The notes beneath the pieces were generated by a model. The model was not told the origin of the DNA and ran no database searches. It was given only the letters and a program-made list of their open reading frames with translations. Shown here one piece after another: positions 1 to 56,552 of a stretch of DNA of 64,000 nucleotides (the stretch's first letter is position 1; each line of letters opens with the position of its first letter). This DNA is from an uncultured Gammaproteobacteria bacterium (GTDB lineage Bacteria > Pseudomonadota > Gammaproteobacteria > SZUA-229): positions 426-64,425 of the forward strand of contig CAVYHW010000006.1 in NCBI GenBank assembly GCA_963768215.1, in the 5' to 3' direction. A program made the translations under genes and the position numbers.

Positions 1-81
1 TGGTTATCTGTGATCAGCCAGACAGCATCTACAGCAGTTGGTTTTGATTTTTTTGCTTGGTACATGGAGTTACCGTATTGA
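1..81 (+). other. possible 3' end of an ORF entering from the left window edge
   Basis: Frame 1 is open from nt 1 to TGA at 79-81 (...AVGFDFFAWYMELPY*). Too short to identify. Confidence 0.2.
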
Positions 82-91
82 GGGGTAAATA

Positions 92-469
92 ATGACATGC
101 TTGTATAAACAGTATTCCTGTAATGCCATCATCCTGGGTTTCTGTCTAGTCCTGTCGGCAGGTCAGGCTATGGCAACCAACTTTGAACCACCAAAACTTG
201 ACGGCTTTAACCTGCATGCCGAACGTGATGCCGACGGGGATAAAGACGGCGTTAATGAAACCCACATCAAGCAGTACTTCAACGCCTCGGGCGACAGTAT
301 TGTCAGTATGACCACCAAAGATAAGGTTTGGGCCTGGAGCATGAGTACGCGCAATATGAAGTCAGGGGATAAAAATTTCGTTATCCGCGACAGCAATTGC
401 GATGGTCAGTTCAACGAAGTCTACGGGCTGGACGAAGAGTTTCATGTTCCCGATTGCCTGAAGAAATAG
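92..469 (+). CDS. small secreted protein of unknown family with two acidic DxDxDG-like loops
   Basis: 125-aa ORF with GAGGGG 6 nt upstream of the ATG. Signal-like N-terminus (ILGFCLVLSAGQAMA). Loops DADGDKDG and DSNCDGQ; two Cys in the mature part. Confidence 0.5.
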   Translation: MTCLYKQYSCNAIILGFCLVLSAGQAMATNFEPPKLDGFNLHAERDADGDKDGVNETHIKQYFNASGDSIVSMTTKDKVWAWSMSTRNMKSGDKNFVIRDSNCDGQFNEVYGLDEEFHVPDCLKK

Positions 470-526
470 TATGGTGCCCTGGTACTCCATCAATACAATG
501 TTGTTGGAACATCAGGACAGTGCAGA

Positions 527-1264
527 TTAGTTTTCTGCTGCAATTTGCAAACCAGCGTGCTGCAGAAGAGACTTACGAATAGCCACCAGGCTCTGGTCTT
601 CAGGTGAGCTGTCTATCATTGAGGAAATGGTTTCCAGGGCGTCATACCAGATGCCCTCGATGGCATAGACATTAACCAGCTCTGTTCCCTGGCTCTTCTT
701 AATGCGGCTGCTTAATCCTTCGCCTGGTTTTATGCGCTCGATAATACCACTGGCGATTGTAGTTGTTGACTGCTTACCTTTATCCATCAGCTGAACTACT
801 GACCATTGATAGCTAAGCTCGGGCTGCAGGGAGATGTCGTGCTTGCCCAGATCCAGTTGCTGAATGCCAGCGCCCTTTTTAATATCGACCTTTAGCAGTG
901 GATTAGCTCCAGGCTTTTCAGTCGCGGCAATGGTAAAGCGCACCGTTATCGGCGTGCGTGCATACCAGTAGAGGATTGGCTGAGGCTGCAGGGTCAAACC
1001 AGCATGATCCGGTGCCAGTACCTGCAATATTGTTGCCTTACCTTCCATGCTCCGGGCACTTTGACTTACCACGGCCGGAGGATCGTCACGTAGTGGTGCT
1101 TTGTAAAGGATGGCAGGTCGTATGGTTGTCGACCTTGCCTTAGGGCTGTCTATAGCTTGAGCCTGTTCTGCAGCGCTTGAAACGGAAGTGATGGTCACCA
1201 GTAAAATAGCGAAAACCAATGTCAGTCCTGTTTTTACGGTTACTAATAGCTTGTATTGTTTCAT
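527..1264 (-). CDS. DUF928-like secreted protein
   Basis: 245-aa ORF with a signal peptide. The PILYWY...SYQWSV...YAIEGIWYDALE pattern matches my recollection of DUF928 (mostly cyanobacterial). Confidence 0.6.
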   Translation of the reverse strand: MKQYKLLVTVKTGLTLVFAILLVTITSVSSAAEQAQAIDSPKARSTTIRPAILYKAPLRDDPPAVVSQSARSMEGKATILQVLAPDHAGLTLQPQPILYWYARTPITVRFTIAATEKPGANPLLKVDIKKGAGIQQLDLGKHDISLQPELSYQWSVVQLMDKGKQSTTTIASGIIERIKPGEGLSSRIKKSQGTELVNVYAIEGIWYDALETISSMIDSSPEDQSLVAIRKSLLQHAGLQIAAEN

Positions 1265-1300
1265 TCGGTAGTCTCGTGTGCTGCTTTGGTTGTAAGCGGT

Positions 1301-1640
1301 TCATGTAATACAGTGATATTCTGAAACCATCTGTTCGCTAGCAGTAATGGTGTTTTCATTATCACAGCCAGGGTTGCTATGTACACGGTAACCAATATTG
1401 CCTTTTGCGTCAATTAGAAAAGATTTGAGTGTAGCAGTAAATTAAAGTTTATAAGTTTGGCGAGCTTTCCGACTTTATTATCTTTTTTCACCGACATACA
1501 GCGCCAGGTTTTCGAATGGCTTATCGTCTAGTTGTTTTTAAGTTTTGTCGGTTCCGGCATTTCGTATCAGATAGGGGTAGGGACCGAAAACAATCTGTTC
1601 GGACACCCCTGATAGTTTCAGTTTCTGTGGTGAAATGATT
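1301..1640 (-). pseudogene. relic of a tlpA-like thiol:disulfide oxidoreductase (3' two-thirds only)
   Basis: Minus-strand translation aligns with about residues 66-193 of the intact TlpA at 9221-9802. Examples: SFLIDAKGNIGYRVHSNPGCD vs SFLIDGDGRVSYRIRGNPGWD; EMPEPTKLKNN vs EMPELTKLKKH; PFENLALYVGEK vs PFEILALNVGEK. The alignment needs frame changes and contains stops, and WCPPC has decayed to VPTPI*. Confidence 0.65.
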
Positions 1641-2027
1641 ATTAATTATTGGCTATCAAATCTGTTAAGTAATTAAATATTAGAATTTCATTAATTGTTA
1701 ATTGTTAATTGTGTAAGAAAACCCAACAAAATATTGGGTTATTAATGACAAAATCAGGATTACTTTAGTGTTTCTGTGAGCCCGTCAGGGTTTTAAAGCA
1801 GTCATACAGGCATTATGCAAAACTATATAGAATCAGTCTTATTATGTAAATAATTCCGACAAGGGTGCAGTCTGAAATGTGCTGTAGCCGTGATACAGGA
1901 ATATAAACACTATTATTAGTGTGTTTTCTAAGTGTTAACTAATTCGACAAACGTTGAAGTCTCTTTGCAGGATCGATTCAGCTGTTGATATTAAATTTAT
2001 ATCATAAATTGAAAAAATGTAAACAAT

Positions 2028-2040
2028 TGTCAGTTTGACA
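2028..2040. promoter_or_regulatory. palindrome TGTCA-gtt-TGACA, candidate upstream activator site
   Basis: Perfect 5+5 palindrome about 126 nt upstream of the -24 GG at 2160. An ATGTCAT copy lies at 2079-2085. The same motif family is clustered at 10205-10442. Confidence 0.3.
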
Positions 2041-2158
2041 TTTATCAAGTGACGATTTGGCATGCTTTACTGTTAGAGATGTCATATATATAGATAATTA
2101 GTAATATTCTGATATTCTTATACTTAGTGATAGTCGGTATTTTAAGTGTGATATTTTG

Positions 2159-2175
2159 TGGCATGGAATGTGCAT
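2159..2175 (+). promoter_or_regulatory. sigma54-type (-24/-12) promoter candidate upstream of the cytochrome gene
   Basis: TGGCATGGAATGTGCAT compared with consensus TGGCAC-N5-TTGCW. GG is at 2160-2161 and GC at 2172-2173, giving correct spacing. It lies about 130 nt upstream of the ATG at 2305. Confidence 0.45.
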
Positions 2176-2304
2176 AATAAATCTTAGATGCTATGTGCAT
2201 TTGTTATAAACCGTGTAGTTGAAAACATAAAGAATAATCAAAGGGTAGTTTTCGACACATAACTTAAACGTAAATGAACAACAAACCTTTGGGGGGATGA
2301 GGAC

Positions 2305-5300
2305 ATGTTTAGAAGTCTTCTAAGACAGTTCTTGAAAAAAGCAGTGACAATAGTCGCTGGTGCCGGGACCCTGCTATTTATTAGCACGGCTGGCACAAGT
2401 ACTCTACTATTTGTAGGGTCGATGACTACATCATTTGATGTAAATGCTGACAGTCACGATGATGTATTTAGAATCAAAAAAGCAGAGTGGAGCTCCAGGC
2501 GAAACCGCCTGACAGTCGAAGGTGAAGATGCTGACAGTCGTGTACTTGTCACGGTAACCAATGCAGATACCACCGCTTTTGTCGATGACGATGAATCCAG
2601 TCGAAAGGGTAAATGGCGGACACGAACGAGTTATGATAATACCTCTTCGGTTCCTTGTCGTGTTCGCGCCCAACAGCCAAATGGCGACTGGGATGAAAGA
2701 GATGTCAGTCGTGCACCGGCTGACTGTGATGATGGCGGTGGCGGCAATACCCCGCCGACAGCCAACGATGATGCGGCTACTACCAATCAGGACGTGCCGG
2801 TCACCATCAATGTACTGGCCAACGACACCGATCCCGATGTTGGTGATACCCTGAGTGTCGCTTCGGTAACACAGGGCGGCAACGGTAGTGTGACCAACAA
2901 CGGCACAGACGTGACCTACACACCGAATGCCGGTTGGTTCGGTATTGACACGTTCACCTATATCGCTACCGACGGAACAGATCCTAGCAACAGTGCCACA
3001 GTCACCGTGACCGTCAATCAGACTGGTGGTGGCAACAACCCGCCCACTGCCGTCGACCAGACCTTCCCCATCGACACTGCCGTACTGGACCGTGCCGGCC
3101 CCGACCTTATCCTGGGTAACGCAGAGGTTCCTGCACCAGGCGTACTCTTGAATGCAGCCGACCCGGACGGCGATACGCTCACCGCCGTGCTCGTGAGCGG
3201 TGCTTCTGCGGGCTCGCTGATCCTTAATCCGGACGGTTCTTTCGAATATACGCCGGCTTCCAGCCCTAGCACGGACAGCTTCACCTATCAGGCTGATGAC
3301 GGTAAGGTGGGCTAAGTGCAGTCCAAACCGTTGACCTCAGCGTACAGACCGGATTACAGGTCAACACCACTAGCCAGAACAAGTTCAACATCTTGTTGAA
3401 CTACGAGCTGGGCATGCACTGCACCGGTTTCGAGTTTGCCTACTGCTGTGTACTGCCGCCCTACAACTCGATCATCGGCCAGGTGGTGCGGACCGACAAG
3501 GGCAACAACGACAGCGACTTCCCGATGCTGCTGGAGGGCGATCCCAACGTCGGCCTGGATGGACTCGGCCGCGAGACGGTGCTGCGTGAACCACAACTGG
3601 ATGGCAATGGCAACTTCAACAAATACGTGATGAAGTACTGGCACGAGGCCCAGCCGCGTAACGACGGCCGTGGCAAGCCCCAGTCCAGCGTCATGATCAG
3701 CGCAGTGGAAGCCAATTCCCTGTTTATGTGGAACACGATCTATGATGCGGCTGACACTGATGCAGGTAACAATCTGGTCACCGGTACCTACGAAGGCGCC
3801 AGTGGTGTAGTCATGGGTAACGGCAACTACAACGATGCCAATGACAACTACGGCAGCGGCTGGATGAACCACTTCTATATCTACGCGGATCTGGAGGGCA
3901 GTAATCCCGCCAACTCCACAGCAGAGAAGGACAAGATCCGACTCGGCCTGGAGAATCTGAATGCCAGTACGGCGCTGTCACTGGCTGTACCGGCCGACTG
4001 TGGCCCGGCGTTCCACCCGATGGGCCCGGATACCCAGAACGGGGTTCCCGGCGATCCTGCGGTTGCCAACGACTGCGGCGGCTACTCCAACGGCAACCTG
4101 CTGACCTTCTCCACCGATCATGGTACCGTGGTCTACACCCAGATGAAGGTACTGGAGAATTTACCGGTGATGTTGACCTCGCCGCGCATCTGGGAGGCCC
4201 TGGGCCTGCCGCTGACGCCGTTTGAGGACACCATCGACTTCTTCAATGATCCGGGTCTGGTGGACGAAGACTCCGTGCGCCCGTTCGTCGCCATGAAGGC
4301 GCAGCTGCACAACTATGATGCGGGCGCCCCCAGTGGTGTTGGCACGCCGGTCATGGACGGTGGTAATCCGGTCATCGGTTTCGGCACCGCGCCGATCGAT
4401 ATCCCCAACTGCGAACGCTGCCACTCCGAACTGCAGGCGAGCAGCCAGAACAGCGCCCAGCAGATCGGCGGCAGAAATCCTGATATAGCGGCACTGGTGC
4501 AGGAGGAGATGGATTACTGGAATGGTCTCTATGGACTTACTCCGGGAGTCGACTCAGACTGGTACTCGCGTCTGAAGGGAGCGGCCATCAGTATCCTGGC
4601 CATCCACGATGCTCAGCACGGCACCAGCTTTACGGCTAATTATCCTGCAACGGGCACCAACCCGCTCAACCTGCCGGCAGACAAGCTGGCCTTCCCAGCA
4701 GAATACGCGTCTGGGCAAGGAGTCGGTAATCTGTCAGAAGTGCCACGCCGACAACGTGATCGCAGTGGTTAAATCGGCCAACTGTGCTCCGGGTAATGCA
4801 CTGTGTAGCTCGCCGGGTGCGCTGATCGTGCCTATCACCGAGGCTATCCACGACAACCATCGCAACGTCAGTGACGGCGGCGTCATCGTGATGGCCGACT
4901 CGCAGGGCCGTGATGGTGGCTGTCAGGGTTGCCACCCAGCTCACCGCTCCGACGGCGATATGGCCGGTTATCCCATCACCATCGAGGGTGATAACTTCTA
5001 CGCCGCTGTCGATAACCGCGACGCCAACGGCGGCTGCTTCGTCGGCCGCGACGTGCACTCCAACCCGGGCAAGGACACCGACGGTGCGGAGACGCCGGAG
5101 CACCTGAATGCAGTGGGAGAATGGCTGGCTGACAACGTGTTCAACGACGGCAACAGCGTGAACGGCGGTCTATGGTGTACCAACTGTCACCAGCAACTCG
5201 GCCAGGAGTTGTGGAAAGCTGAAAATATGGAAGACCTTGTCCATGGTGTTGGCCTGAACAACCCGCGTGGTGAACCGACACTGGCAGCTGTTGCGGCAGC

Positions 5301-6489
5301 GGTTGGCACCACTGAGGCACAGGCCATCGCCTGGCTGGATCCGAATGCCGACACAATCCGCTGGGTGACTTCACCCATGCCATCTGGGATCCGGATCCGG
5401 GTCTGTGTGACTACGTTTCGGGTGCTTTTGGGATTACCCCGGTTAATCCAGCCCACGATGGTAATGTGGCAACAGTGGAGGTTAACATCGGTAGCGGTAG
5501 CGGCTCTTGCTCCAATGCAGCTGATGCTAACGCATTCGCAGTACCTGTGGACTGCGGTTTCGTGACCTTCGATATCTGCGGTTCGACGGATGTCGACGGT
5601 GACTTCAGCGTGAACGCCATGGACTTCTGCACCACACCGGATTGTGTAGCTGCTGCACAGGTTACACTGGCTAGCACTTGTACTCCTGCTGCTGGTGAGC
5701 GGTGTGCGGTACCTGTGCCAATGTCGGCAGCCACCGATGGTCGTGACCACTGGTTGTCACCGGGTGAGCCTCACTGTGCGGACTGTCATGCAGCTCCATA
5801 CGTTGAGCAGAGCGGCAACATCAATGACTTCCCACCGTTCAACTACCCACGCAAGGCGAGCCTGATGCGTTACTCACGCGGTCACCAGGACATTACCTGT
5901 CAGGGCTGTCATGAGTCGATCCACGGTCTGTATCCCGTGACTCCGACCATCGACACCACCAGCTATGCCCAGGCGGCTAACCTGAACGCCGACGGTTCGC
6001 ACGGTCCGGTGAAGTGCAGTGCCTGCCATGCAGTTGATAACGAGGGTATTCCCGACCTGGATCGGAAACAATGCCGGTGGCACCCTGGGATCTATCAACG
6101 ACTTCGACGATGCGGTTGGCTGGGCCCACACCTACACGGAAGAGGACAGCGTGCTGACCAGCACCTGCCTCAACTGCCATGGTGTCCAGGGCAACAACTG
6201 GAGCGACGTGGCCGTCGACAACGAGTCCTATATGGAACATGCTGAATCGGGCAATAACAAGGACCTGCCGCGCAGCATGATGGACAAGGCCGAGATCGAG
6301 CTATACGGTGCGGTCTTCGGTACCACGGATGGTTCTGACGGTGCATGCCAGGGTTGCCACGGCGATGAAAGCAACAATGTTAGCTGCGGCGACACCGAGT
6401 GGAAGCTGCATCTGACCGAGGGACGTGTCGCCGAGTCGACCTGGGAGACGGCAAGCGTCGCTCAGACCGGCAGCACCTGCGGCTGGTAA
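2305..6489 (+). pseudogene. membrane-anchored cadherin-like / nonahaem c-type cytochrome, interrupted by four frameshifts
   Basis: Five overlapping ORFs alternate between two frames: 2305-3315 f1, 3393-4772 f3, 4609-5565 f1, 5466-6245 f3, 6019-6489 f1. They join near 3305, 4705, 5352 and 6060. GAGG RBS before 2305, then an N-terminal TM anchor. Two cadherin-like repeats (PPTANDDAATTNQDVPVTINVLANDTDPD..., about 2750-3350). CxxCH motifs at 4410-4424, 4732-4746, 4921-4935, 5176-5190, 5775-5789, 5898-5912, 6015-6029, 6166-6180 and 6346-6360. Confidence 0.75.
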
Positions 6490-6535
6490 AGCCAGTACAG
6501 GGAGCCTGCTCCCTTACTAGTGATGCAATAAGTGT

Positions 6536-6567
6536 GGAGGGGAAGTGATCTTCCCCTCCATTTTTGT
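6536..6567 (+). terminator. rho-independent terminator after the cytochrome gene
   Basis: GGAGGGGAAG-tgat-CTTCCCCTCC followed by ATTTTTGT. Confidence 0.75.
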
Positions 6568-6661
6568 ATCAGCATCTTAAAGAGTTGTAGAAGCTGTACG
6601 TTTATGCGAACCTCTATACCTAACGAATAACACTGTCTATTTTTATTATCGAGAAGTTACT

Positions 6662-8174
6662 ATGCAGCAACAAATTGTTTATAAAATTATCACCGCCCTG
6701 TTGTTATCTTCCAGCCTGTTTTTAGCCGGATGCAGCGACGACAAGGCAGAAGAAATAAGCCAGCGAAGTTTCCACGATGAAAAGGCTGCCAATCCTGACG
6801 TCATTGCCCGTGTCGGTGACGAAGTGATCAGCTTCAGCGAGCTCAATACCCTGCTCAACAGCTCGGCGATTGTCGGCCTGTCCGTACCCGCACTGGGAAC
6901 GCCGGAACGCAACCGGGTGCGCATCACCCTGTTGGACAAGTTGGTCTCAGCCAACCTGCTCTATCTGGATGCCCTTAAGCACGGCATGGATAAGGACCCT
7001 GTTTATGTTGGCGATATGCAACAATTTACCGATGGTGTCCTGGCCGCGCTCTATCGCCAGCAGCACCTGATTGGGGAAATCGAGATTACTGACGCTGAGG
7101 TGCAGGAATTTTTCGAGAATTCCATCATGCCGGGTACAAAGATGACGGACGACATCAGGCTCGGCATCGAGGCCACGATCCGCAAGCAGCGTTTCAAGGC
7201 TCGCACGGCGACCATGCAGGCACGGTTGCGGGAAGGCGTCGAGGTCAACATCGATGAGAGCGTCCTCGATTCTGCCGGTGATGACGAACGTGAAGACGCG
7301 GCGGTGGTGGCCAGCATTGATGGCGAACCGGTGCGCTGGGAGGCAGTGAAGGAGTTGCTGGTCACAGAGAGCAAACGCACCGCCCGGGCCGAGTTTCATC
7401 TGGACGAGGATGAGGAACGGGCCAGGGCACTCAACGGCTACATCGATACGCGCATCATGGCGAAGAAGGGCCGGACGGCGGGGCTGGAGCAGGACCCGGT
7501 TTACCAGCGTCGCTTTAAGGAGATACAGCAAGAACCACATGACCAACCTGCATCGGGAGCGCTTGATCAGGGAAATGGATCCGACCGAGGAAGAGCTGTG
7601 GGATTACTTCGAGGACAATAAAGACGCCATCACCGTGCGTGAGGCACGAAAGGTGCAGATGGTCGTCCTGAAAACGCGGGAAGAGGCCGAGGCGATCAAA
7701 ACAAGGATCGGGGCGGGAGAAATCACGATCTTTGAGGCGGCACGCGATCATTCCATCGATCCGAATGCCAAGCAGACCCTGGGAGAGATGGGCTGGGTGG
7801 TGAAGGGCACCGGCTTTCCGGAGCTCGATAAGGCGACCTTCTCATTGGATCTGGATACGCTGAGTGACCCGGTGGAATCACCGGCCGGCTGGCACCTGGT
7901 GAAGGTGCTCGACATGCGTGACGCGGAGCTCGAGGACATTATGAACGAAACGACTCGAAAGACGACCCGGCGCAGGTACCTGCAGGAAAAGATGAATGAG
8001 TACGTCGTCAACCTGCGCAAGAACGAGTTTCCAGTGGTGGTGTATGAGGAAAATATCGATCGGCTGTTCAAGGCAGAAGCGGAATGGGTCGCAGCACTTG
8101 AGGAAAAGGCCAGGCAGTCACCTGAAGAAACGCAAAAGCGCCTGGATGAGACTACGAAGTTCATGAAGCCTTAA
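6662..8174 (+). pseudogene. lipoprotein SurA-N/parvulin (PpiC-type) peptidyl-prolyl isomerase, one frameshift
   Basis: ORFs 6662-7621 (f2) and 7410-8174 (f3) join near 7525-7535 (...PVYQRRFKE|YSKNHMTNLHRERLI...). Lipobox LFLAGC. Rotamase core ARKVQMVVL...GEMGWV...SPAGWHLVKV. Confidence 0.7.
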
Positions 8175-8187
8175 AGGTGTCAGGAGT

Positions 8188-8274
8188 GAATGGCACTTAC
8201 TCAGCCATAAGCCCTGTCATTGCAATGACGAATACTGCGATAAGGTATTTGAAAAGGCTTAAGTAAGTGCCATT
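8188..8274. mobile_element. MITE-like element, family E (short copy)
   Basis: Inverted termini GAATGGCACTTAC... / ...TTAAGTAAGTGCCATT, as in 25015-25212. Inner palindrome GTCATTGCAATGAC. Confidence 0.55.
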
Positions 8275-8295
8275 GGGCTCCTATCCCTCATTATG

Positions 8296-8493
8296 CTAAG
8301 GAGCAGCAGCTGATTGTGGTTGCCCAACGATTTTTTGTAACTCACCAATATTTTGTTGCAGGCGCTGCATTGCCAGCTGGTTCCTTTGCTGTACCAGCTG
8401 TGGTAATGCATTGATAACTTTTTGCCCTGCCGGCGTAAGATAGAAGTCATTGACTGCTTTTAATTCGTCTTCACTGAAAGTTTGCATATACAT
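8296..8493 (-). pseudogene. orphan 3' fragment (65 codons) of a second DUF2059 gene
   Basis: Aligns base-for-base with 8716-8913, the 3' end of the intact gene. Its 5' part is replaced by element C1. Confidence 0.65.
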
Positions 8494-8499
8494 AGTACT

Positions 8500-8711
8500 G
8501 TAGGATGCAGTGAGGTACGAACCGCGTCATTCGCGTATTAAGCTGTGGAATAATAAAGCTTATAGTTTGTGTTTTTACTACGCGCCTCCTACGCTACGTC
8601 CTTCGGACCGTACTAGCGTCCGTTCAAAATGCTCCCGGCATTTTAGTGTGATTTTCACGGACTTGTATTGTTTAATGCAATCGATGCGGTTCGTACCTCA
8701 CCGCATCCTAC
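8500..8711. mobile_element. palindromic MITE-like element, family C, carrying a nested D insertion
   Basis: Arms GTAGGATGCAGTGAGGTACGAACCGC / GCGGTTCGTACCTCACCGCATCCTAC. Other copies at 15382-15472 and 25084-25151; half copies at 16676-16711 and 62559-62596. Confidence 0.65.
8577..8648. mobile_element. 72-bp micro-insertion, family D
   Basis: ACTACGCGCCTCCTACGCTACGTCCTTCGGACCGTACTAGCGTCCGTTCAAAATGCTCCCGGCATTTTAGTG. Near-identical copy at 62865-62936. Contains the hairpin AAAATGC-tcccg-GCATTTT. Confidence 0.6.
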
Positions 8712-8715
8712 GCAA

Positions 8716-9201
8716 CTAAGGAGCAGGTGCTGGTGCTGGTGGAGCAATAATCTTCTGTAACTCACCAATATTCTGCTGCAGGCGCTGCATTGCCAGCTGG
8801 TTTCTTTGCTGTACCAGCTGTGGTAATGCAGTGATAACTTTCTGTCCTGCCGGGGTGATGTAAAAGTCATTGACTGCTTTTAATTCGTCTTCACTGAAAG
8901 TTTGCATATACATAGCGGCAAGGTCGGTTTTCAGCGCATTCCAGCCGATATATTTTGTGAAGAAGTTGCGCATTTCTGTGCTGTGTTTTGCCAGCTGCGG
9001 GTTCTGGCGTAATTGCAGCTGTAAAACTGAATCAACACTCTCATCGATTTTCTTTTCCATCTGGGTCAGTTTGAAAAGCTTTTCTACTTCCTGCAGGTGG
9101 GCCTGGTTGTTTGCGGCCAGATTGTCTGCGGCCTGTGATAGCGGAGAGATTGATAACAGAAAAAATGATGTTGCTGATATCAGGGTATTCAATGGTTTCA
9201 T
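8716..9201 (-). CDS. DUF2059-like periplasmic protein
   Basis: 161 aa with a signal peptide. C-terminal ...FSEDELKAVNDFYITPAGQKV... is typical of DUF2059 as I recall it. Confidence 0.7.
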   Translation of the reverse strand: MKPLNTLISATSFFLLSISPLSQAADNLAANNQAHLQEVEKLFKLTQMEKKIDESVDSVLQLQLRQNPQLAKHSTEMRNFFTKYIGWNALKTDLAAMYMQTFSEDELKAVNDFYITPAGQKVITALPQLVQQRNQLAMQRLQQNIGELQKIIAPPAPAPAP

Positions 9202-9220
9202 TAGTATGTCTCGTTTATAG

Positions 9221-9802
9221 TTAGTTATCTGGTTTAGTAGTTATAGTTGATTCTGTGATGAGTTTTTCAATTAATGTGATGGTTTCTTCCTGATCCCAGC
9301 CCGGGTTGCCTCGTATCCTGTAACTAACTCGTCCATCGCCATCAATCAGGAAACTGGTGGGTAATGTTTGAACGCCCCAGGCATCGAAGGTTTCACTGGA
9401 GGTGTCCAGTAATACCGGTAGATTGAAATTGATCAGCTTTACAAATTTTCTAACCCGGTATTTTTTTTCCCCGACATTGAGTGCAAGTATCTCGAATGGC
9501 TGTCCGGCAAAATGCTTTTTAAGCTTTGTCAGTTCAGGCATTTCATAAATGCAGGGTGGGCACCAGCTTGCCCAGAAGTTAACCAGTACTACTTTACCCC
9601 GGTAATCGGATAATTCATGTTGCTGGTTTTTCAGGTCAGGCAGGGTGAATTTATCTGCCCCGCTATCAGCAGACCAGGGCTGTATTTCCGCCTGGCCGGC
9701 AATGGCTTGTTGTAAACAGCATAGCAATAATACCAATGCAGCGGCCAGTCCGGTAGCGAGTTGTGTTTGCCACGGTCTGGCAGAGTTATTGAATAGAAAC
9801 AT
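9221..9802 (-). CDS. TlpA/ResA-family thiol:disulfide oxidoreductase
   Basis: 193 aa with a signal/anchor segment. Thioredoxin motif NFWASWCPPC. Confidence 0.85.
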   Translation of the reverse strand: MFLFNNSARPWQTQLATGLAAALVLLLCCLQQAIAGQAEIQPWSADSGADKFTLPDLKNQQHELSDYRGKVVLVNFWASWCPPCIYEMPELTKLKKHFAGQPFEILALNVGEKKYRVRKFVKLINFNLPVLLDTSSETFDAWGVQTLPTSFLIDGDGRVSYRIRGNPGWDQEETITLIEKLITESTITTKPDN

Positions 9803-9856
9803 TGCACTATTTTGAACGGTGCTGTAGTGATGTCAACAAAATAAATTTCTCTGGAT

Positions 9857-10158
9857 TTAACCCGGATATTTCATAGGAGCGCTGTTAAATTCACTTAACG
9901 CTATGATTATATTAAGAAATAGCAGTATGTTAGAAAAGTGCACTATGTGTCCGACAACGCTATGCAGTTTTTGCCATTACTATTTTTTGTGGATATCAGC
10001 GGCCCCATGATTAATTTATTTTGGGTACGATTCACCTGTAACCATAGCTACGGCTATGCACATAAAGTGATCATGGGGCGAATCGTACAAACTGACTCAC
10101 TGACCGATTTTATAAAATATCTCCCCATTGTCTGCATTCCTATGAAATATCCGGGTTA
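9857..10158 (+). mobile_element. MITE-like ~290-bp element, family F (copy 1)
   Basis: Perfect 18-bp TIR CCCGGATATTTCATAGGA (9861-9878) / TCCTATGAAATATCCGGG (10138-10155). Core shared with 38565-38853 and 59439-59727. Confidence 0.7.
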
Positions 10159-10204
10159 ATTCTCGACAGCTTGTTGCACGCTTGTTTATTAAAATTAGAC
10201 TCTC

Positions 10205-10442
10205 TGTCAATTTAGGCAAATGTGACAAAATTTAATCGGTTTTTAGTTATTATGTAAAGAAATATGACATGCTGACATGTGTCAGGGAGAATATGTCATG
10301 ATTTGCATTTTAGATTTGTTTATAAGTAACTGTATTTGATTACTATTTTCATAAGGTTATCGTGTGTATGACATTTTGCCCTAATCAATGTCTGTTTGTA
10401 CTGTTGCATGACAACTCTGTCATGTGTATAGTATTTATGTCA
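10205..10442. promoter_or_regulatory. array of ATGACAT/ATGTCAT (TGACA/TGTCA) motifs upstream of the sigma54 activator gene
   Basis: Ten TGACA/TGTCA pentamers in 238 nt. They include the palindromes TGACA-tg-TGTCA (10273-10284) and ATGACA-actc-TGTCAT (10408-10423). Confidence 0.4.
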
Positions 10443-10458
10443 AAGGGGGAGGTTTTCA

Positions 10459-11847
10459 GTGGACAAAAAAGTTGAAAGCAAAGCATCAATTGATCTGGAA
10501 TCACTGGTAAATAGTCACGACAGGCCCTTTGTAGTCATTGATAAGAATTATAATATCATGGCGGCAAACAGGGCTTACGAACAGTTGCATGGTGTAAAGG
10601 ACAGTAGCGCAATTGGTCAGAAGTGCTTTCAGGTCAGCCATAAAAAAGACCATCCATGCAGTGAAGAAGGTGAGGAATGTCCCCAGGAGTTTGTTTTTAA
10701 TACCGGGGAATCAAAAGTCTGTTCACATATTCATTGTGATGGCAATCATAACCTGTATCAGGTAAAAGTTTCTGCATTCCCGCTAAAAGGCCCGGGCGAC
10801 ACGATGTTTTTGGGCGAGTGTATTGAGCAGGTCGTCTCAATGAAAAATTTCGCAACCGGCACCAAGCAGATGGTTGGGGAATCACCCCAGTTCCTGGCAT
10901 GTGTTAATCAGTTGATGATTGCTTCCAGTTCAGATGCACCGGTGTTGTTGCAGGGCGAAACCGGTACCGGTAAGGAGCTGGCTGCCGAATTTGTCCATAA
11001 CCACTCATCTCGAAGTAAAAAACCTTTTCAGATTGTCGACAGCACCGTATTGACGGAAAGCCTGTTTGAGGCAGAGATGTTTGGCCACGTGGCTGGTGCT
11101 TATACAGGCAGTGCGGGCACCAAGCAGGGACTTTTTGAACTGGCTGAAGGTGGCACTATTTTTCTCGACGAGATAGGTGATATGCCGCTTTCGCAGCAGG
11201 TCAAGTTGCTGCGTGTGCTGGAATCCGGGCAGTATAGACCGGTTGGCGGGAAACGGCTTCGCAAGGCTGATGTGCGTATTATATGTGCGACCAACAGACA
11301 TTTATGGGAGTCAGTGCTTGCGGGCAAATTTCGTGAGGACCTGTATTATAGAATTGCGTGCCTGAATATTCGTCTGCCGGGTTTGCGCGAGCGTTTAGAT
11401 GATATCCCTGTGCTGGCGCAAAATTTACTTGAAGGCATTAATCGTTCCATGCATGGCAGTTATCATTTGATGCCTGATGCTTTTGATCGCCTGAAGGCAT
11501 ATCAATATCCGGGAAATGTACGTGAGCTGCGGAATGTCCTTTTCATTGCAGCAACACATAGTAACAATCGTGAAATTGATGCAGCGCTAATCGATGCAGT
11601 GATGGCTAATATGCCAAGCTGTAGTAAGTCTGCAAATAAAGAAGAGGCTCATACTGTATCAGAAATGCCATCACCTCAGGCTATTGATTCGAAGGCCGAA
11701 GAACCGCCAACGTTGAAGAACATGGAAGAGAAGCACATAAGAGATTTGCTGGAACGTTACCAGGGGAATCGTAAACTTGTTGCAGACGCGCTGGGTATTA
11801 GTGAGCGCACAATTTATCGAAAACTCAAACGCCTGGGGCTTAGCTGA
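10459..11847 (+). CDS. sigma54-dependent transcriptional activator (PAS-like Cys/His-rich sensor + AAA+ + Fis HTH)
   Basis: 462 aa. Walker A GETGTGKE. GAFTGA-loop variant GAYTGS. ...RIICATN... C-terminal ISERTIYRKLKRLGL. Confidence 0.9.
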   Translation: MDKKVESKASIDLESLVNSHDRPFVVIDKNYNIMAANRAYEQLHGVKDSSAIGQKCFQVSHKKDHPCSEEGEECPQEFVFNTGESKVCSHIHCDGNHNLYQVKVSAFPLKGPGDTMFLGECIEQVVSMKNFATGTKQMVGESPQFLACVNQLMIASSSDAPVLLQGETGTGKELAAEFVHNHSSRSKKPFQIVDSTVLTESLFEAEMFGHVAGAYTGSAGTKQGLFELAEGGTIFLDEIGDMPLSQQVKLLRVLESGQYRPVGGKRLRKADVRIICATNRHLWESVLAGKFREDLYYRIACLNIRLPGLRERLDDIPVLAQNLLEGINRSMHGSYHLMPDAFDRLKAYQYPGNVRELRNVLFIAATHSNNREIDAALIDAVMANMPSCSKSANKEEAHTVSEMPSPQAIDSKAEEPPTLKNMEEKHIRDLLERYQGNRKLVADALGISERTIYRKLKRLGLS

Positions 11848-11892
11848 GACTGTGTTCAGAATTGTAAGCGAGTCGTAAAAACAAAAAAATAT

Positions 11893-12007
11893 TTCACCAC
11901 AGAGGCACAGAGGACACAGAGGTTTTTATTGTTGTGCGCCTGCGGCGCATTAACAAACAAAAAAGTCTTTCTCTGTGTCCTCTGTGCCTCTGTGCCTCTG
12001 TGGTGAA
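11893..12007. repeat. family B palindrome (arms of CACAGAGG(A) tandem units, inner GC hairpin)
   Basis: TTCACCACAGAGGCACAGAGGACACAGAGG ... CTCTGTGTCCTCTGTGCCTCTGTGCCTCTGTGGTGAA. Inner hairpin TGCGCC-tgc-GGCGCA at 11935-11949. Confidence 0.8.
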
Positions 12008-12108
12008 TAATCTTTATAATGTTGATAAATTGATGTAGATCATTCATTTCCTGCCGTATTAATAGAAAATGTTCAATCTTTGTAACCACGGATTATTCCC
12101 GCTGATAA

Positions 12109-13047
12109 ATGAATCTTGCGCAGTATGTGAATACTTTCGGTCAGGCCATGCTTACCACTTATGGGGAGCGTGTTCATAAGATTGCCATTGACGCCGGCTT
12201 TACCTGTCCAAATCGTGATGGCAGCATCGGCCGCGGTGGTTGCACTTTCTGTAATAATGTTTCATTTAGTCCTAACGGTCGCAGACCTAAGCCGATAGCC
12301 GAACAGATTGAGTCGGGCCGGCGGGTGATTAGAAAACGCACCGGCGCCAGGAAATATATTGCTTATTTCCAGGCATATACCAATACCTACGCCGATGTCT
12401 GTGAGCTCAGCAGTTTATATGATGAAGCACTGAAACAGCCGGATGTTATCGGGCTTGATATAGGCACAAGGCCGGACTGTGTTCCGGACAAGGTGCTTGA
12501 TCTGCTGGCAGACTATCAGCAGCAGGGTTACGAAGTCTGGCTGGAGCTGGGTCTTCAGTCCGCGCATGATAAAACCCTGAAGCATGTTAACAGGGGACAC
12601 GGTTTTGCTGAATATGAACAGGCAACCTTAAAAGCGCGCAGCCGGGGTATTAAAGTGTGTACGCACCTTATCCTGGGTTTGCCGGGCGAATCGACCGAAC
12701 ACCATCTGGCCTCACTTGAGTCAGTACTCGAGCTTGGTGTTGACGGTCTCAAGTTTCATCCACTGCACGTGGTTAAAGGCACACAACTGGCCAATGAGTG
12801 GCGGCGGGGTGAATATCAGCCCTTAACCATGGAACAATATGTTTCTGATGTTGTAGAAATGGTCAGGCGTACACCTGGTAATGTCATCTTTCATCGCCTG
12901 ACAGGAACAGCGTCAGCTGATATTTTGCTGGCGCCAAAGTGGTGCTCAAAAAAATGGCAGGTGCTTAATGCTATAACCGCTGGGCTTGCTAAACAGGCAA
13001 AACTGGCTGAAACGCCGGAGATAAGCATGAAAGACATAGTTGATTGA
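12109..13047 (+). CDS. TIGR01212-type radical SAM protein (YhcC-like)
   Basis: 312 aa. FTCPNRDGSIGRGGCTFCN motif. Confidence 0.8.
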   Translation: MNLAQYVNTFGQAMLTTYGERVHKIAIDAGFTCPNRDGSIGRGGCTFCNNVSFSPNGRRPKPIAEQIESGRRVIRKRTGARKYIAYFQAYTNTYADVCELSSLYDEALKQPDVIGLDIGTRPDCVPDKVLDLLADYQQQGYEVWLELGLQSAHDKTLKHVNRGHGFAEYEQATLKARSRGIKVCTHLILGLPGESTEHHLASLESVLELGVDGLKFHPLHVVKGTQLANEWRRGEYQPLTMEQYVSDVVEMVRRTPGNVIFHRLTGTASADILLAPKWCSKKWQVLNAITAGLAKQAKLAETPEISMKDIVD

Positions 13048-13200
13048 TACCGAAAACCTGCATTTTCAATAGGATGAAGGCAACGCCAGTAAATTAAGCT
13101 TTGTAGGTGCGAATGCAACGTGCAAATGCTGCGTCCTCGAAAACCTTGCCCAAAATCCTTCTACTGTCCAACGCTATAAAATTGTAGAAAGAGGTTAGTT

Positions 13201-14196
13201 ATGGAACTTGTATGTCCAGCAGGTAATTTACCTTCACTGAAAGCGGCCGTAGATAACGGCGCCAACGCTGTTTATATGGGCTTTAAAGATGATACCAATG
13301 CGCGTCATTTTGCCGGGCTTAATTTTGATGACAGGCGCGCCACAGAAGGTATTCGTTATGCACATGATCGTGGTGTAAAGGTGTTTGTCGCGATCAATAC
13401 CTTCCCACAGCCCTCCGGCTGGTCACGCTGGCAGGCCGCGGTTGATCATGCCGCTGAGATGGGTGTTGATGCATTGATCCTGGCCGATATCGGGGTGATG
13501 GATTATGCCCGTGAACGCTGGCCTGATCTTCGCCTGCATCTGTCAGTGCAGGGTTCGGCAACCAGTGCCGAAGCGATTAATTTTTATTTTCAGAATTTTG
13601 GCATTCAGCGAGTTGTGTTGCCGCGTGTACTGTCACTCAAACAGGTAAAACAGGTTGCACAGAGCAGTCCGGTACCGATTGAAGTATTTGGTTTCGGCAG
13701 TCTTTGCGTTATGGTGGAAGGGCGCTGTTTATTGTCTTCTTATGTTACCGGTCGTTCACCCAATACTTTTGGCGCCTGCTCACCGGCCAATGCAGTGAGC
13801 TGGAATGAAACGCCCAACGGGCTTGAAACAAGGCTTAACAATATACTCATTGATCGACATGCAGAGGGTGAATCGGCAGGTTATCCAACCTTATGCAAAG
13901 GCCGTTTTAATGTTAGCGGTAATACCTATTACGCTATTGAAGAACCCACCAGTTTAAATACATTAGAATTGCTGCCCGAATTACAGTCTGTCGGTGTAGC
14001 GGCAATTAAAATTGAAGGCCGGCAGCGAAGCCCGGCTTATGTGGCGCAGGTAACAAAGGTCTGGCGAGAGGCCATTGATCTTTGTGAGAAAAGTCCTGAA
14101 GGTTATCAGGCGCAGGCAGACTGGATGGCGTCACTGGAAAAAGTTTCGGAAGGTTCGCAGACTACGCTGGGGGCTTATCATCGACCGTGGCAGTGA
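13201..14196 (+). CDS. ubiU: U32-family protein UbiU (O2-independent ubiquinone hydroxylation)
   Basis: 331 aa. MELVCPAGNLPSLKAAVDNGANAVYMGFKDDTNARHFAGLNF is close to E. coli YhbU. Four-Cys pattern C-x6-C-x16-C-x38-C. Confidence 0.8.
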   Translation: MELVCPAGNLPSLKAAVDNGANAVYMGFKDDTNARHFAGLNFDDRRATEGIRYAHDRGVKVFVAINTFPQPSGWSRWQAAVDHAAEMGVDALILADIGVMDYARERWPDLRLHLSVQGSATSAEAINFYFQNFGIQRVVLPRVLSLKQVKQVAQSSPVPIEVFGFGSLCVMVEGRCLLSSYVTGRSPNTFGACSPANAVSWNETPNGLETRLNNILIDRHAEGESAGYPTLCKGRFNVSGNTYYAIEEPTSLNTLELLPELQSVGVAAIKIEGRQRSPAYVAQVTKVWREAIDLCEKSPEGYQAQADWMASLEKVSEGSQTTLGAYHRPWQ

Positions 14197-17379: not shown

Positions 17380-17490
17380 ATGAGCATCAATAACAAAAAT
17401 GAAAAAGAGCCGGATGATTTTATTGAAGGCCTGCTAATATTTATTGCTTTTATTATCTTTATGACAGTGTGGATGTATTTTGCCGTTTAA
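17380..17490 (+). CDS. candidate 36-aa single-TM peptide
   Basis: MSINNKNEKEPDDFIEGLLIFIAFIIFMTVWMYFAV*. Below the ORF-track cutoff, with no clear RBS. Confidence 0.2.
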   Translation: MSINNKNEKEPDDFIEGLLIFIAFIIFMTVWMYFAV

Positions 17491-17512
17491 CAGCTGAAAT
17501 TGAATCAGTATT

Positions 17513-18007
17513 TTAACCAAATAGTCGTTCATACACCGGCAGGCTTTTCTGTAAAACAGATTCAAGATAAGCAGGAACCTTGTGTGATTCCATGTCCATG
17601 CCATCGAGAAAGTTTTTTACATATAGACCTAACTCGGTATCGCCCTGCATGTGCAGGCGACGGCTGAAAAATAAAGTATCGGTATCTTCCTTGCGACTTG
17701 CCAGTAATAGATAGTTATATACTGTTCCCTGTAAAACAAGGTCTGGTGAACGGTTTTTACCGGCAGCGAGTAATTTACTATTGTCTAAAGTAAAACGGTA
17801 CTCTATGCCTGCATCTTCGATTGAAATCTGTATTATTTTATCCTGCAGAAAATCCAGTTCGCCGTCTTTCAATTCTTTAGTAAATATTCTGTTAAGTGTT
17901 GTGACTAAAGCTTTATTATGTACAAATGATGGTAGTATTTTTAACGGCAAAGAAAGCAGGGCGGGGAAGAGCGGGTGTGATTTAATATTTTTGATGGATG
18001 TTTGCAT
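17513..18007 (-). CDS. ubiT: SCP2-domain ubiquinone accessory factor UbiT (YhbT-like)
   Basis: 164 aa. ...DGELDFL...RKEDTDTLFFSRRLHMQGDTELGLYVKNFLD closely resembles E. coli YhbT. Confidence 0.7.
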   Translation of the reverse strand: MQTSIKNIKSHPLFPALLSLPLKILPSFVHNKALVTTLNRIFTKELKDGELDFLQDKIIQISIEDAGIEYRFTLDNSKLLAAGKNRSPDLVLQGTVYNYLLLASRKEDTDTLFFSRRLHMQGDTELGLYVKNFLDGMDMESHKVPAYLESVLQKSLPVYERLFG

Positions 18008-18020
18008 GATTTATAAAGCA

Positions 18021-18080
18021 GTGAATAGTTAATAGTGAACAGTTAATAGTAAAAGTTATTAGTTATTAGTTATTAGTTTG
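18021..18080. repeat. family J heptamer-repeat block
   Basis: TGAATAG TTAATAG TGAACAG TTAATAG taaa AGTTATT AGTTATT AGTTATT AGTTTG. Confidence 0.7.
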
Positions 18081-18097
18081 AACTTAAAACATATAAC

Positions 18098-18676
18098 TTA
18101 AAACCATTGTGTCTCTTGTTTACTTAGCCAGTATTTATGTATCCTGGTATCGTCTGTTAATTCTGGATGGAATGATAATGCAATATGTTTACCATAACCT
18201 ATCATCACCGCCTCATTATTGTATGTTGCCAGTACTTCAATATCGGCTGACAGTTTTTCAAAACCAGGCGCACGAATAAAAGGCGCTTTAAAAGTATTGT
18301 TGTCAAAACTCAGTTTTACCTCGGCAGTAAAACTGTGGACCTGTCGACCGTAAAAATTACGCAATGCTTTGAACGGCATTAACCCTAAAGGAGTGATACG
18401 TTCATCATCAACTTCAGTGGCCATCATAATCATGCCTGCGCATACGCCCATAACAGGATGATTGTTTGCAAATGATTTAATCGGTCCATATAAATCATAT
18501 TCCTGTAGCAGCAGGCTTATTGTGGTCGATTCACCGCCGGGTATAATTATAGCGTTACAGTCATCAAGTTCATCCGGCTTACGTATCAGCTGTGATTCAA
18601 CACCGAGCCTGGAAAGACTTTCGACATGCTTTTGATAAGCGCCCTGTAAAGCAAGGACGCCCACTGTATTATTCAT
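18098..18676 (-). CDS. pdxT: pyridoxal 5'-phosphate synthase glutaminase subunit
   Basis: 192 aa. GVLALQGA...IIPGGESTT...GVCAGMIM. Confidence 0.9.
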   Translation of the reverse strand: MNNTVGVLALQGAYQKHVESLSRLGVESQLIRKPDELDDCNAIIIPGGESTTISLLLQEYDLYGPIKSFANNHPVMGVCAGMIMMATEVDDERITPLGLMPFKALRNFYGRQVHSFTAEVKLSFDNNTFKAPFIRAPGFEKLSADIEVLATYNNEAVMIGYGKHIALSFHPELTDDTRIHKYWLSKQETQWF

Positions 18677-54626: not shown

Positions 54627-56012
54627 ATGTTTGATGGATTAAGTGACCGTCTTGCCAGTACCGCGCAGAAATTGCGCGGTGAAGGCCGACTGACCGAAAA
54701 AAATATTCAGGATGCGTTGCGTGATGTACGCATGGCATTGTTAGAAGCAGACGTTGCGCTGAGCGTTGTCCGCGGCTTTATCGAAGAGGTAAAACAGCGT
54801 GCGCTGGGTGAGGAAGTATTAACCAGTCTGAAGCCGGGGCATGTTTTTGTAAATATCGTCCAGGATGAACTGGTTAAGATAATGGGCGCGCAAAACGAGC
54901 AACTCGATTTGAGCGCACAACCCCCCGCCGTGGTGCTGATGGCCGGATTACAGGGCGCGGGTAAAACCACCACGGTGGCCAAACTGGCTAAAATGCTCAA
55001 GGAAAGAGAGAAAAAGAAATCCCTGCTGGTGAGCTGTGATATTTATCGGCCAGCGGCGATAGAGCAGCTAAAGACCCTGGCCACACAGGTTGGCGCAGAA
55101 TTTTTCCCCAGCAGTACCGATCAAAAACCAGTTGATATCGCCAGGGCCGCCATTGATTATGCGCGCAAGCATTATATTGATGTGGTGCTGGTAGATACCG
55201 CCGGCCGTTTACACATCGACACGGACATGATGGATGAAATCAAGGCCATTCACGCTGCAGTTAACCCGATAGAAACCCTGTTTGTGGTTGATAGTATGAC
55301 CGGCCAGGATGCGGCCAACACCGCGAAGGTGTTTAATGAGGCCCTGCCATTAACCGGTGTTATTTTAACCAAAACCGATGGTGATGCCCGTGGCGGCGCC
55401 GCCCTGTCGATTCGACAGATTACCGGTAAACCCATTAAATTTATGGGTTCAGGTGAAAAAATTGAAGCACTTGAAGCCTTTTACCCTGATCGTGTGGCTT
55501 CACGTATTCTGGGTATGGGTGACGTGCTTTCGCTGGTCGAAGAAGTTCAGCAGAAAGTCGATCACAAAAAAGCGGCGCGGCTGGCGAATAAGATCCAGAA
55601 GGGCAAGAGTTTCAATTTCAATGACCTGAAAGAACAGTTTGAGCAAATGCAGAATATGGGCGGCATGGCCGGTTTAATGGACAAACTCCCCGGCATGCCG
55701 GGCATGGCGGACAAACTTAAGGACAAGGTTAATGACAGGGAAATGCGACGTATGGTTGGCATTATCAATTCCATGACACCCAAAGAACGAGCCTTCCCGG
55801 ATATCATCAAAGGCTCGCGCAAGCGCCGAATCGCAGCAGGTTGCGGCTTGCAGGTGCAGGACGTGAACCGGCTCATCAAGCAGCAGATGCAGATGAAGAA
55901 GATGATGAAAAAAATGTCCGGCGGCGGCATGGCAAAAATGATGCGCGCCATGAAAGGTGGTGGTATGCCGCCGGGAATGGGTGGACCGGGTGGTGGCGGT
56001 ATGGGTTTTTAG
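54627..56012 (+). CDS. ffh: signal recognition particle protein
   Basis: 461 aa. GLQGAGKTT, DTAGRL, Met-rich M domain. Confidence 0.97.
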   Translation: MFDGLSDRLASTAQKLRGEGRLTEKNIQDALRDVRMALLEADVALSVVRGFIEEVKQRALGEEVLTSLKPGHVFVNIVQDELVKIMGAQNEQLDLSAQPPAVVLMAGLQGAGKTTTVAKLAKMLKEREKKKSLLVSCDIYRPAAIEQLKTLATQVGAEFFPSSTDQKPVDIARAAIDYARKHYIDVVLVDTAGRLHIDTDMMDEIKAIHAAVNPIETLFVVDSMTGQDAANTAKVFNEALPLTGVILTKTDGDARGGAALSIRQITGKPIKFMGSGEKIEALEAFYPDRVASRILGMGDVLSLVEEVQQKVDHKKAARLANKIQKGKSFNFNDLKEQFEQMQNMGGMAGLMDKLPGMPGMADKLKDKVNDREMRRMVGIINSMTPKERAFPDIIKGSRKRRIAAGCGLQVQDVNRLIKQQMQMKKMMKKMSGGGMAKMMRAMKGGGMPPGMGGPGGGGMGF

Positions 56013-56048
56013 CCTGCGTGGTTAATGAATAAAAACAAAAAGTAAATC

Positions 56049-56135
56049 GTCCGCAGATAAACACAGATGTTTAAAGCCCTACTAACGTAATTATCTGTGT
56101 TTATCGTCTGTGTTTATCTGCGTTTATCTGTGGAT
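56049..56135. repeat. family A palindrome (degenerate)
   Basis: GTCCGCAGATAAACACAGAT ... ATCTGTGTTTATCGTCTGTGTTTATCTGCGTTTATCTGTGGAT. Confidence 0.7.
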
Positions 56136-56374
56136 TTAAATTGTTTTTATCTGTACGGGCACATTTCTAGCTGTAATCGAAAATAAATGACACTCTTGAC
56201 TGAAATGTGTCACTTTTTTTTACAGTTCACTGCAGGCGCTTAAATAGCTGTCACAACAATCAACAATAACAAACAATCATCAAGTTCAACGAAATGCCCG
56301 TACGAGTGGGCTTTAAGCACTAAAATGGATTAAGCCGCTGCTTTATTTAGCCGGTGTTATTCAGGTTAATTTTC

Positions 56375-56391
56375 TGGCATGTGATTTGCTT
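56375..56391 (+). promoter_or_regulatory. sigma54-type (-24/-12) promoter candidate
   Basis: TGGCATGTGATTTGCTT. GG at 56376-56377 and TTGCT with GC at 56388-56389, giving exact consensus spacing. About 40 nt upstream of the ATG at 56429. Confidence 0.45.
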
Positions 56392-56428
56392 ATCTTGTAT
56401 TGACAATTGCAAATACAAGAGTGTAACC

Positions 56429-56539
56429 ATGCATCACAATAAAGATACTCAGAAAGAAATAGTTGTTATAGAGGCGGTTGTGTGGGTATTTTGGGTAGTT
56501 GTCTTTGTCGTTGTTTATCTGCTTTCTAAATTAATATGA
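56429..56539 (+). CDS. candidate 36-aa hydrophobic membrane peptide
   Basis: MHHNKDTQKEIVVIEAVVWVFWVVVFVVVYLLSKLI*. Polar head plus one TM segment. Weak AAGAG upstream. Confidence 0.25.
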   Translation: MHHNKDTQKEIVVIEAVVWVFWVVVFVVVYLLSKLI

Positions 56540-56552
56540 AAATAACCTGGCA

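Follow-up and report, generated by a model that had tools for sequence, protein, structure and literature searches.

A foreign allele of a nine-haem cytochrome and its companion peptidyl-prolyl isomerase, probably swapped in place and probably frameshifted by consensus errors, in an uncultured gammaproteobacterium

Introduction

In xenologous gene displacement, a concept reportedly discussed by Koonin and colleagues in 2001, among others, a homologue from a distant lineage takes over the conserved chromosomal position of a resident gene. In noisy long-read and hybrid assemblies, indel errors inflate pseudogene counts, and fold-back chimeric reads are a known artefact. High rates of multihaem cytochrome acquisition and loss have been reported in Geobacter (PMC12977616). 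Here we analyze a nine-haem cytochrome c gene and the peptidyl-prolyl isomerase (PPIase) gene behind it in the draft genome of an uncultured gammaproteobacterium (GCA_963768215.1; 2.27 Mb, 124 contigs, GC 0.437). The whole stretch analyzed, 64,000 nucleotides from position 426 to 64,425 of contig 6 (CAVYHW010000006.1), is called the window, and coordinates are those of the window unless another contig is named. An earlier note on this DNA had described the two genes as a GC-rich foreign segment, frameshifted in both, that was either a decaying module of horizontal origin or a locally problematic part of the assembly. Our reading is that a GC-rich allele probably replaced the resident one in place and that the frame changes are likely errors of the assembly.

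The nine-haem family is widespread and uncharacterized, and it is always PPIase-paired in sulfur-oxidizing Gammaproteobacteria, where the pair occurs in Thiodiazotropha, Thiogranum, Sulfuricaulis, and others. A parvulin-type PPIase gene lies directly downstream of the cytochrome gene in congeners (same-genus genomes) and in L001 and L069, the cytochrome–PPIase loci of two distant Gammaproteobacteria. Five congeners, G004, G005, G007, G013, and G022, are referred to by handle below. The family has immunoglobulin/cadherin-like N-terminal domains and nine CXXCH motifs at low density, and it is loosely like the outer-surface decahaem cytochromes MtrC and OmcA of Shewanella. The match of the window's cytochrome to domains II/IV of MtrC/MtrF is weak (PF22113, 16.5 bits, below the cut-off of 30), and no significant sequence match was found between the haem part and solved structures (PDB).

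Results

A GC-rich tract of two genes

GC content per 1-kb window was 0.564–0.607 at 2501–6500 and 0.543–0.581 at 6001–8000; it was 0.347 in the left flank (1501–2500) and 0.446 in the right flank (8501–9500), and the peak in the rest of the window, outside the tract, was 0.538. The tract peak of 0.5965 lies about 4.7 standard deviations (SD) above the 2-kb windows of the genome (mean 0.436, SD 0.034). GC content at third codon positions (GC3) was 0.58–0.76 in the coding pieces of the tract versus a mean of 0.427 (SD 0.067, 99th percentile 0.619) in 1062 long open reading frames (ORFs) of the genome. The earlier note had placed the GC-rich segment at 2650–8175, with GC ramps at the 5' ends of both genes and no other gene inside. 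Sliding-window GC and GC3 profiles show this discontinuity clearly, the ramps were seen as well, and ORF and Pfam content agree that the tract holds only the cytochrome and PPIase genes, both on the + strand, with an AT-rich spacer between them (~6550–6700, GC 0.35).

The cytochrome gene (2305–6489, + strand) encodes a nine-haem cytochrome c with two cadherin-like/Big_9 domains and is split, according to Pfam and tblastn, into five pieces, read in turn in frame 1 and frame 3. Piece A matches the Pfam families Big_9 (1e-31), Cadherin_4, and Cadherin_5 and has weak cytochrome matches, and tblastn with the intact 1387-aa L001 protein spans all five pieces. The nine CXXCH motifs sit in a haem-poor domain behind the cadherin-like/Big_9 domains, at positions matching those of L001. 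The N-terminus is hydrophobic in translation, and the product is a predicted exported protein with several CXXCH motifs. The second gene (6662–8174, + strand) encodes a lipoprotein-type PpiC/parvulin PPIase and is found by Pfam and tblastn in two pieces, frame 2 and then frame 3. It matches Rotamase (PF00639, 9e-16, 59.1 bits against a cut-off of 21.7), Rotamase_2, and Rotamase_3 and can be aligned to the intact 502-aa L001 protein.

Composition changes inside the cytochrome gene. In 20-codon windows, GC3 averages about 0.39 up to 2784 (range 0.15–0.50) and 0.55–0.75 from 2785 onward, and this step puts the left breakpoint at 2740–2785 (+ strand), in a Gly-rich linker before the first cadherin-like repeat. 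The 145 N-terminal codons upstream of it (2305–2739, + strand; GC 0.47, GC3 0.37) are probably resident sequence within a mosaic gene. The best match of this N-terminal domain is congener G007 (53% over residues 55–145), L069 and L001 are outside the nine best matches listed, and the domain looks native. The right end of the tract falls between ~8100 and 8200. On GC3, tree, and identity, the putatively xenologous tract extends over 2740–8174 (+ strand) and comprises the remaining cytochrome gene, the spacer, and the PPIase gene.

Phylogeny and synteny of the allele

ProS is 87–90% identical to its counterparts in congeners, 67% to that of the L069 genome, and 64% to that of the L001 genome. 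The tract contrasts with this. Cytochrome pieces B, C, and D are 89–94% identical to L069, 62–81% to L001, and 59–80% to congeners, and the corresponding PPIase values are 76–79%, 70–73%, and 45–54%. A maximum-likelihood tree of the cytochrome (59 sequences, 885 columns), with branch support from the Shimodaira–Hasegawa-like approximate likelihood ratio test (SH-aLRT), places the window sister to L069 (support 100) and then to L001 (99), with four congener copies in a separate clade (100). The tract also resembles the two distant loci in GC3 (0.77 in L001, 0.72–0.75 in L069). In a comparison of 284 orthologue pairs, genes of this genome have a GC3 that is 0.101 ± 0.060 below that of their G004 counterparts; the cytochrome is the one extreme outlier among them, higher by 0.24 (0.76 vs 0.52) and 5.7 SD away. 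DNA identity to the closest sampled relative reaches no more than 85% for the cytochrome and 80% for the PPIase, so the donor is unsampled. Another congener, G022, has a GC-rich allele (0.56–0.63) beside host-like DNA on a 54-kb contig.

Three observations concern the genomes used here. The mean GC3 of the 284 pairs is 0.416 in this genome and 0.517 in G004, a marked AT drift within the genus. The L069 record (CAWKAE010000022.1) is labelled 'uncultured Halobacteria archaeon'; its ProS is 67% identical to that of the window and its neighbours are of gammaproteobacterial type, and the taxonomic label looks wrong. L069 and G004 share the sample series MFD03551.

A homologue of the cytochrome was found in 5 of 24 same-genus genomes. 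G007 and G013 carry a sigma54 activator, a TlpA-like gene, a DUF2059 gene, the PPIase gene, and the cytochrome gene in the order and orientation of the window, and their right-flank genes are 64–77% identical to the window's. In G004 the cytochrome–PPIase pair is also present, with the activator ~11 kb downstream. Cytochrome and PPIase genes in these three congeners have a GC content of 0.45–0.55, near host-like. The conserved right flank of the window (8716–11847), recognized by synteny, consists of DUF2059 (8716–9201, − strand), the TlpA-like gene (9221–9802, − strand), and the sigma54 activator (10459–11847, + strand), whose orthologues (68–70%) were found in congeners only. Not every member of the genus has the module: in G005, none of the cytochrome, PPIase, DUF2059, and TlpA-like genes lies within 10 kb of the activator orthologue (70%; contig 50, ~55,394–56,785, locus L213).

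As relatives have orthologues at this site too, no gene was added there. The earlier note had called the segment foreign and, as one option, a horizontally acquired module. Its foreignness holds for the allele, on the tree and the contrast with ProS; an inserted module is contradicted by congener orthologues that are in place and near host-like in GC. The note had also seen no integrase, tRNA, or att-like repeat, and here our searches agree: no tRNA gene lies at 1–14000, there is no integrase in the tract (whose gene content is the cytochrome and the PPIase alone), and no direct repeat brackets it except a 15-nt chance match.

Five frame breaks

Alignment of the intact L001 proteins by tblastn gives five frame breaks on the + strand, in agreement with the count made from the letters. 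Each is a single-base change: −1, +1, −1, and +1 in the cytochrome gene and +1 in the PPIase gene. The sites were compared with contigs of near relatives from short-read sediment metagenomes, which are ~90–97% identical to the tract. At the first (3303–3312, near 3309), the frame passes from 1 to 3 with one base short; the open frames overlap only at 3306–3315, and contigs from three runs have one additional base behind 3305. At the second (4690–4699; 4670–4699 by tblastn), frame 3 returns to 1 through one surplus base in or beside a CCC run. Relatives' contigs have one base fewer at 4696/4697, as does L069 in TTCCCAG. The third (5345–5356, near 5352; tblastn) again takes frame 1 to 3 with one base short, and the indel patterns of relatives' contigs at 5351–5359 agree modulo 3. 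The fourth (6046–6053, near 6052; tblastn) takes frame 3 to 1 through one surplus base in TCCCGACC; one relative's contig has one base fewer at 6049, and numerous contig alignments break at 6052/6053. The fifth, in the PPIase gene (7515–7531; tblastn), takes frame 2 to 3 through one surplus base, and contigs from three runs have one base fewer at 7522. At sites 1, 2, 4, and 5 the near relatives thus have the number of bases that keeps the frame, and at site 3 their indel pattern is consistent with it modulo 3, so the five indels are private to this assembly.

Outside the tract, a non-exhaustive check of ten overlapping same-strand ORFs at five junctions found no further frame break in the window. 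Six of these ORFs have Pfam matches and represent complete, separate domains; the other four are small or unmatched and uninformative. Flanking genes with congener orthologues aligned in single pieces. To the extent of this check, the frameshifts of the window all fall inside the segment, as the earlier note had said. For 5 of 5 breaks within 5.5 of 64 kb, a uniform model gives P = 5e-6, so the clustering is real.

Frame changes across the assembly

The ORFs in 790 kb of G004 were compared with this genome, covering 406 orthologous genes and 134,863 aligned residues. This yielded 35 frame changes in 23 of the 406 genes (~6%), which amounts to roughly one in every 11.6 kb of the coding sequence compared; the reverse comparison gave 10 frame changes in G004. 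Frame changes come in tight clusters with gaps of 200–640 nt. Genes named from their translations include those for 2-oxoglutarate dehydrogenase E1 (sucA, 4–5 changes within 1 kb), pyruvate dehydrogenase E1 (aceE), fadB, and the resistance-nodulation-division pump gene acrB. Contig 75 has 5–6 frame changes across two neighbouring genes. The essential gene parC (topoisomerase IV subunit A; contig 38, 4406–6670) contains a short double shift with an in-frame stop and about 20 codons in the other frame. Lesions are therefore not confined to dispensable genes, and since 23 of 406 genes, sucA, aceE, and parC among them, carry frame changes, frameshifts are not specific to foreign DNA. The asymmetry that had been held against generic sequencing error breaks down genome-wide: frame changes occur, similarly clustered, in housekeeping and essential genes of normal GC.

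No link to composition was found among the 406 genes (mean GC 0.443 in affected genes vs 0.439 in the others), and none to contig ends (median distance 6.9 kb for frame changes vs 6.0 kb for all compared positions, P = 0.95). An association of frameshifts with high GC was also considered for the whole genome and rejected, as other GC-rich regions are either intact (contigs 44, 81, 105, 64, and 26) or broken (contig 24, 1–2065; contig 39, 17.4–18.3 kb; contig 46, near 28.0 kb). In well-resolved cases, 16 of 23 changes are net +1; spontaneous mutation is expected to have a deletion bias, which this excess is unlike. Of the GC-rich, frame-broken patches on contigs 24 (1–3065) and 39 (17,380–18,319), one is an AMP-binding (acyl-CoA ligase-like) gene and the other an aldose-1-epimerase-like gene with a GC-rich inner part.

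Two contig starts are fold-backs. Positions 1–4284 of contig 60 are an inverted copy of 4601–8976, from which they differ by 262 mismatches and 182 gap positions (90% identity); the fold-back spans the gmk-spoT-ridA region, and the genes on the other arm are intact. A cluster of frame changes in spoT and gmk, which might pass for pseudogenes, is an artefact of this fold-back. Contig 29 begins likewise (15–2404 vs 3746–6290, 87% identity, 227 gap positions), around a palindrome at 2407–3653. Because the fold-back arms resemble noisy long reads, the assembly is of very uneven quality.

Constraint on the genes and environmental relatives

All nine CXXCH motifs of the cytochrome are kept, and its five pieces contain no internal stop. 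Counts of in-frame stops from raw tblastn were used for the tract only, being polluted elsewhere by spurious ORFs and alignment ends. The terminal branch of the window in the tree is 0.036, versus 0.075 for its sister L069, and is the shortest in the clade. Sequences 85–99% identical to the tract are abundant in sediment metagenomes in which the flanks are nearly absent, so many co-occurring organisms share the cytochrome gene. The best-matching sequencing runs share 0.14 of sampled tract words and 0.32 of flank words, and other metagenomes hold the organism at trace depth only.

Neighbouring and other features

Immediately right of the tract, beside a small repeat element, the 3' end of the resident DUF2059 gene is partly duplicated (8296–8495, − strand; GC 0.43), as an 89% direct repeat of 8716–8915. 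The recombination event, or the insertion of an element, may have left this repeat as a scar. Donor DNA was rejected as its source on account of the 89% identity to the resident gene and the host-like GC. A TlpA-like relic at 1301–1640 was considered as a homology arm and rejected: its identity to the intact gene, at 38%, is so low as to mark an old paralogue, and it is therefore uninformative. Another gammaproteobacterial metagenome-assembled genome (MAG) has DUF2059 copies on both sides of its cytochrome cluster (locus L041, 2526–2777 and 9854–10228); such flanking paralogues could be recombination arms for cassette exchange.

Elsewhere in the genome, the end of contig 85 (26,000–28,492) has a GC content of ~0.70, beyond the genome range, with long ORFs open in nearly all frames, and could be contaminant or chimeric sequence. 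A 1192-aa ORF at the end of contig 45 (85,268–89,870) consists of ~1.2-kb tandem units that are 88–93% identical.

Discussion

Synteny, phylogeny, and composition together lead us to infer a xenologous replacement. A resident, syntenically conserved cytochrome–PPIase pair would have been replaced from ~2740 to 8174 by a GC-rich allele through recombination, with a distantly related sediment gammaproteobacterium as the donor. The left crossover would lie inside the cytochrome gene, in the linker after the native N-terminal domain, and the right one at or just past the PPIase stop. The five single-base indels would be consensus errors of an assembly whose errors are patchy throughout the draft. 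A GC-rich tract common to many co-occurring organisms at 85–95% identity is a plausible failure spot for short-read assembly or polishing, and the true cytochrome and PPIase genes are probably intact and functional. For replacement in place and consensus errors taken jointly, from sequence comparisons, we put the probability at about 0.68. The locus is then ordinary biology plus an artefact.

The same frame breaks could be real decay, with the acquired allele non-functional in this host and gathering true frameshifts. Five disruptions in two adjacent genes of one module, with none seen in the ~58 kb around, are what decay would give, as are indels absent from relatives; foreign genes are often dispensable, and fast turnover through gain and loss is reported for multihaem cytochromes (PMC12977616). 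Set against this are the lack of any nonsense codon, the nine of nine haem motifs, and the shortest terminal branch of the clade; five neutral indels should have been accompanied, at usual indel-to-substitution ratios, by tens of substitutions and at least one stop. Like lesions in sucA, aceE, and essential parC at normal GC cannot all be real, and the assembly demonstrably holds raw-grade sequence. With no internal stop, haem motifs kept, a short branch, and indels private to the assembly, decay is disfavoured and unlikely, and assembly error is likely; of the two explanations that the earlier note had left side by side, the local assembly problem is the one to keep. We consider programmed recoding, with genuine frame changes that ribosomes would bridge by frameshifting, barely credible. 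The pieces do alternate between two frames, each conserved, and L069 shifts frame within a few bases of site 1. The five sites nevertheless share no motif or slippery sequence, close relatives and L001 have one continuous frame, and frame changes are scattered genome-wide in unrelated genes. The L069 draft is error-prone too and breaks frame elsewhere, and a context-specific consensus error would explain the L069 shift near site 1.

Other alternatives dispense with the transfer. If the assembler had joined a tract from a more abundant organism at a homologous locus, the result would be a chimera, which is about as improbable as decay. It would suit a metagenome bin with proven assembly artefacts and the abundance of tract-like sequences (85–99%) in sediment metagenomes that nearly lack the flanks. 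Yet order and strand are right where each end of the tract meets its correct syntenic flank, and on the left the reading frame runs through the join, which falls on a domain linker within a single open frame (2305–3315). Congener alleles are 59–80% identical in protein, which probably leaves too little common DNA for k-mer crossovers, and G022 likewise has a GC-rich allele (0.56–0.63) adjoining host-like DNA. A native gene made GC-rich by expression-linked codon bias is much less probable still, although about 1% of the genome's ORFs reach a GC3 of at least 0.62, two of these look ordinary in translation (an HflK/HflC-like pair and an ABC-transporter ATPase), and the congener cytochrome orthologues are slightly GC-enriched. 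It fails to account for a tree that groups the gene with distant taxa and apart from congeners at a support of 99–100, for the 5.7-SD deviation of GC3 from the G004 orthologue, or for an abrupt GC3 switch inside the gene.

Several points weigh against replacement in place combined with consensus errors. The indels and both junctions are known from the assembly sequence alone. Indel density in the tract, 5 in 4.2 kb, is ~10 times the genome mean; the patchiness of errors tracks neither GC nor distance from contig ends; and several disruptions per gene are also typical of real pseudogenes. Net +1 shifts dominate genome-wide, yet the noisy fold-back arm is net shorter. The donor of an allele whose closest sampled relative is 85% identical in DNA is also unsampled.

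A wider idea, which we offer tentatively and think rather doubtful, is that the cytochrome–PPIase pair is an exchangeable cassette among distant sediment sulfur-cycle Gammaproteobacteria, moved by recombination at a domain linker and perhaps repeatedly within this genus. Repeated exchange is conceivable given the further GC-rich allele in G022, the missing module in G005, and a homologue in only 5 of 24 congeners. If the idea is true, a host would keep its own N-terminal (anchoring or targeting) domain and swap the redox module together with a dedicated folding helper. More generally, a cluster of frameshifts in a part of a MAG with deviant composition can count as evidence of decay only after a check of the entire assembly. 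The locus would be a clean example of a multihaem cytochrome module swapped in place between distant lineages at an intragenic breakpoint, and it fits the high exchange rates reported for multihaem cytochromes (PMC12977616). Taxonomy, by way of caution, is a poor guide to the redox capacities of uncultured sediment bacteria.

Among known systems, noisy assemblies share with this one the single-base indels in conserved genes, the error patches, and the ~90% inverted contig starts with gaps; here net +1 shifts dominate and are tied to no platform. A classical genomic island would also be a compositionally deviant block of several kilobases that occurs patchily, as this one does in the genus (a homologue in 5 of 24 congeners). 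This locus differs in having no integrase, tRNA, or att repeats and in having orthologues at the same site in relatives. With xenologous displacement it shares the conserved place, the incongruent tree, the atypical composition, and the lack of mobile-element hallmarks; it differs in involving two genes, in an apparent intragenic start that leaves the native N-terminal domain, and in an unsampled donor. As far as sequence can tell, xenologous gene displacement describes the locus better than a genomic island does.

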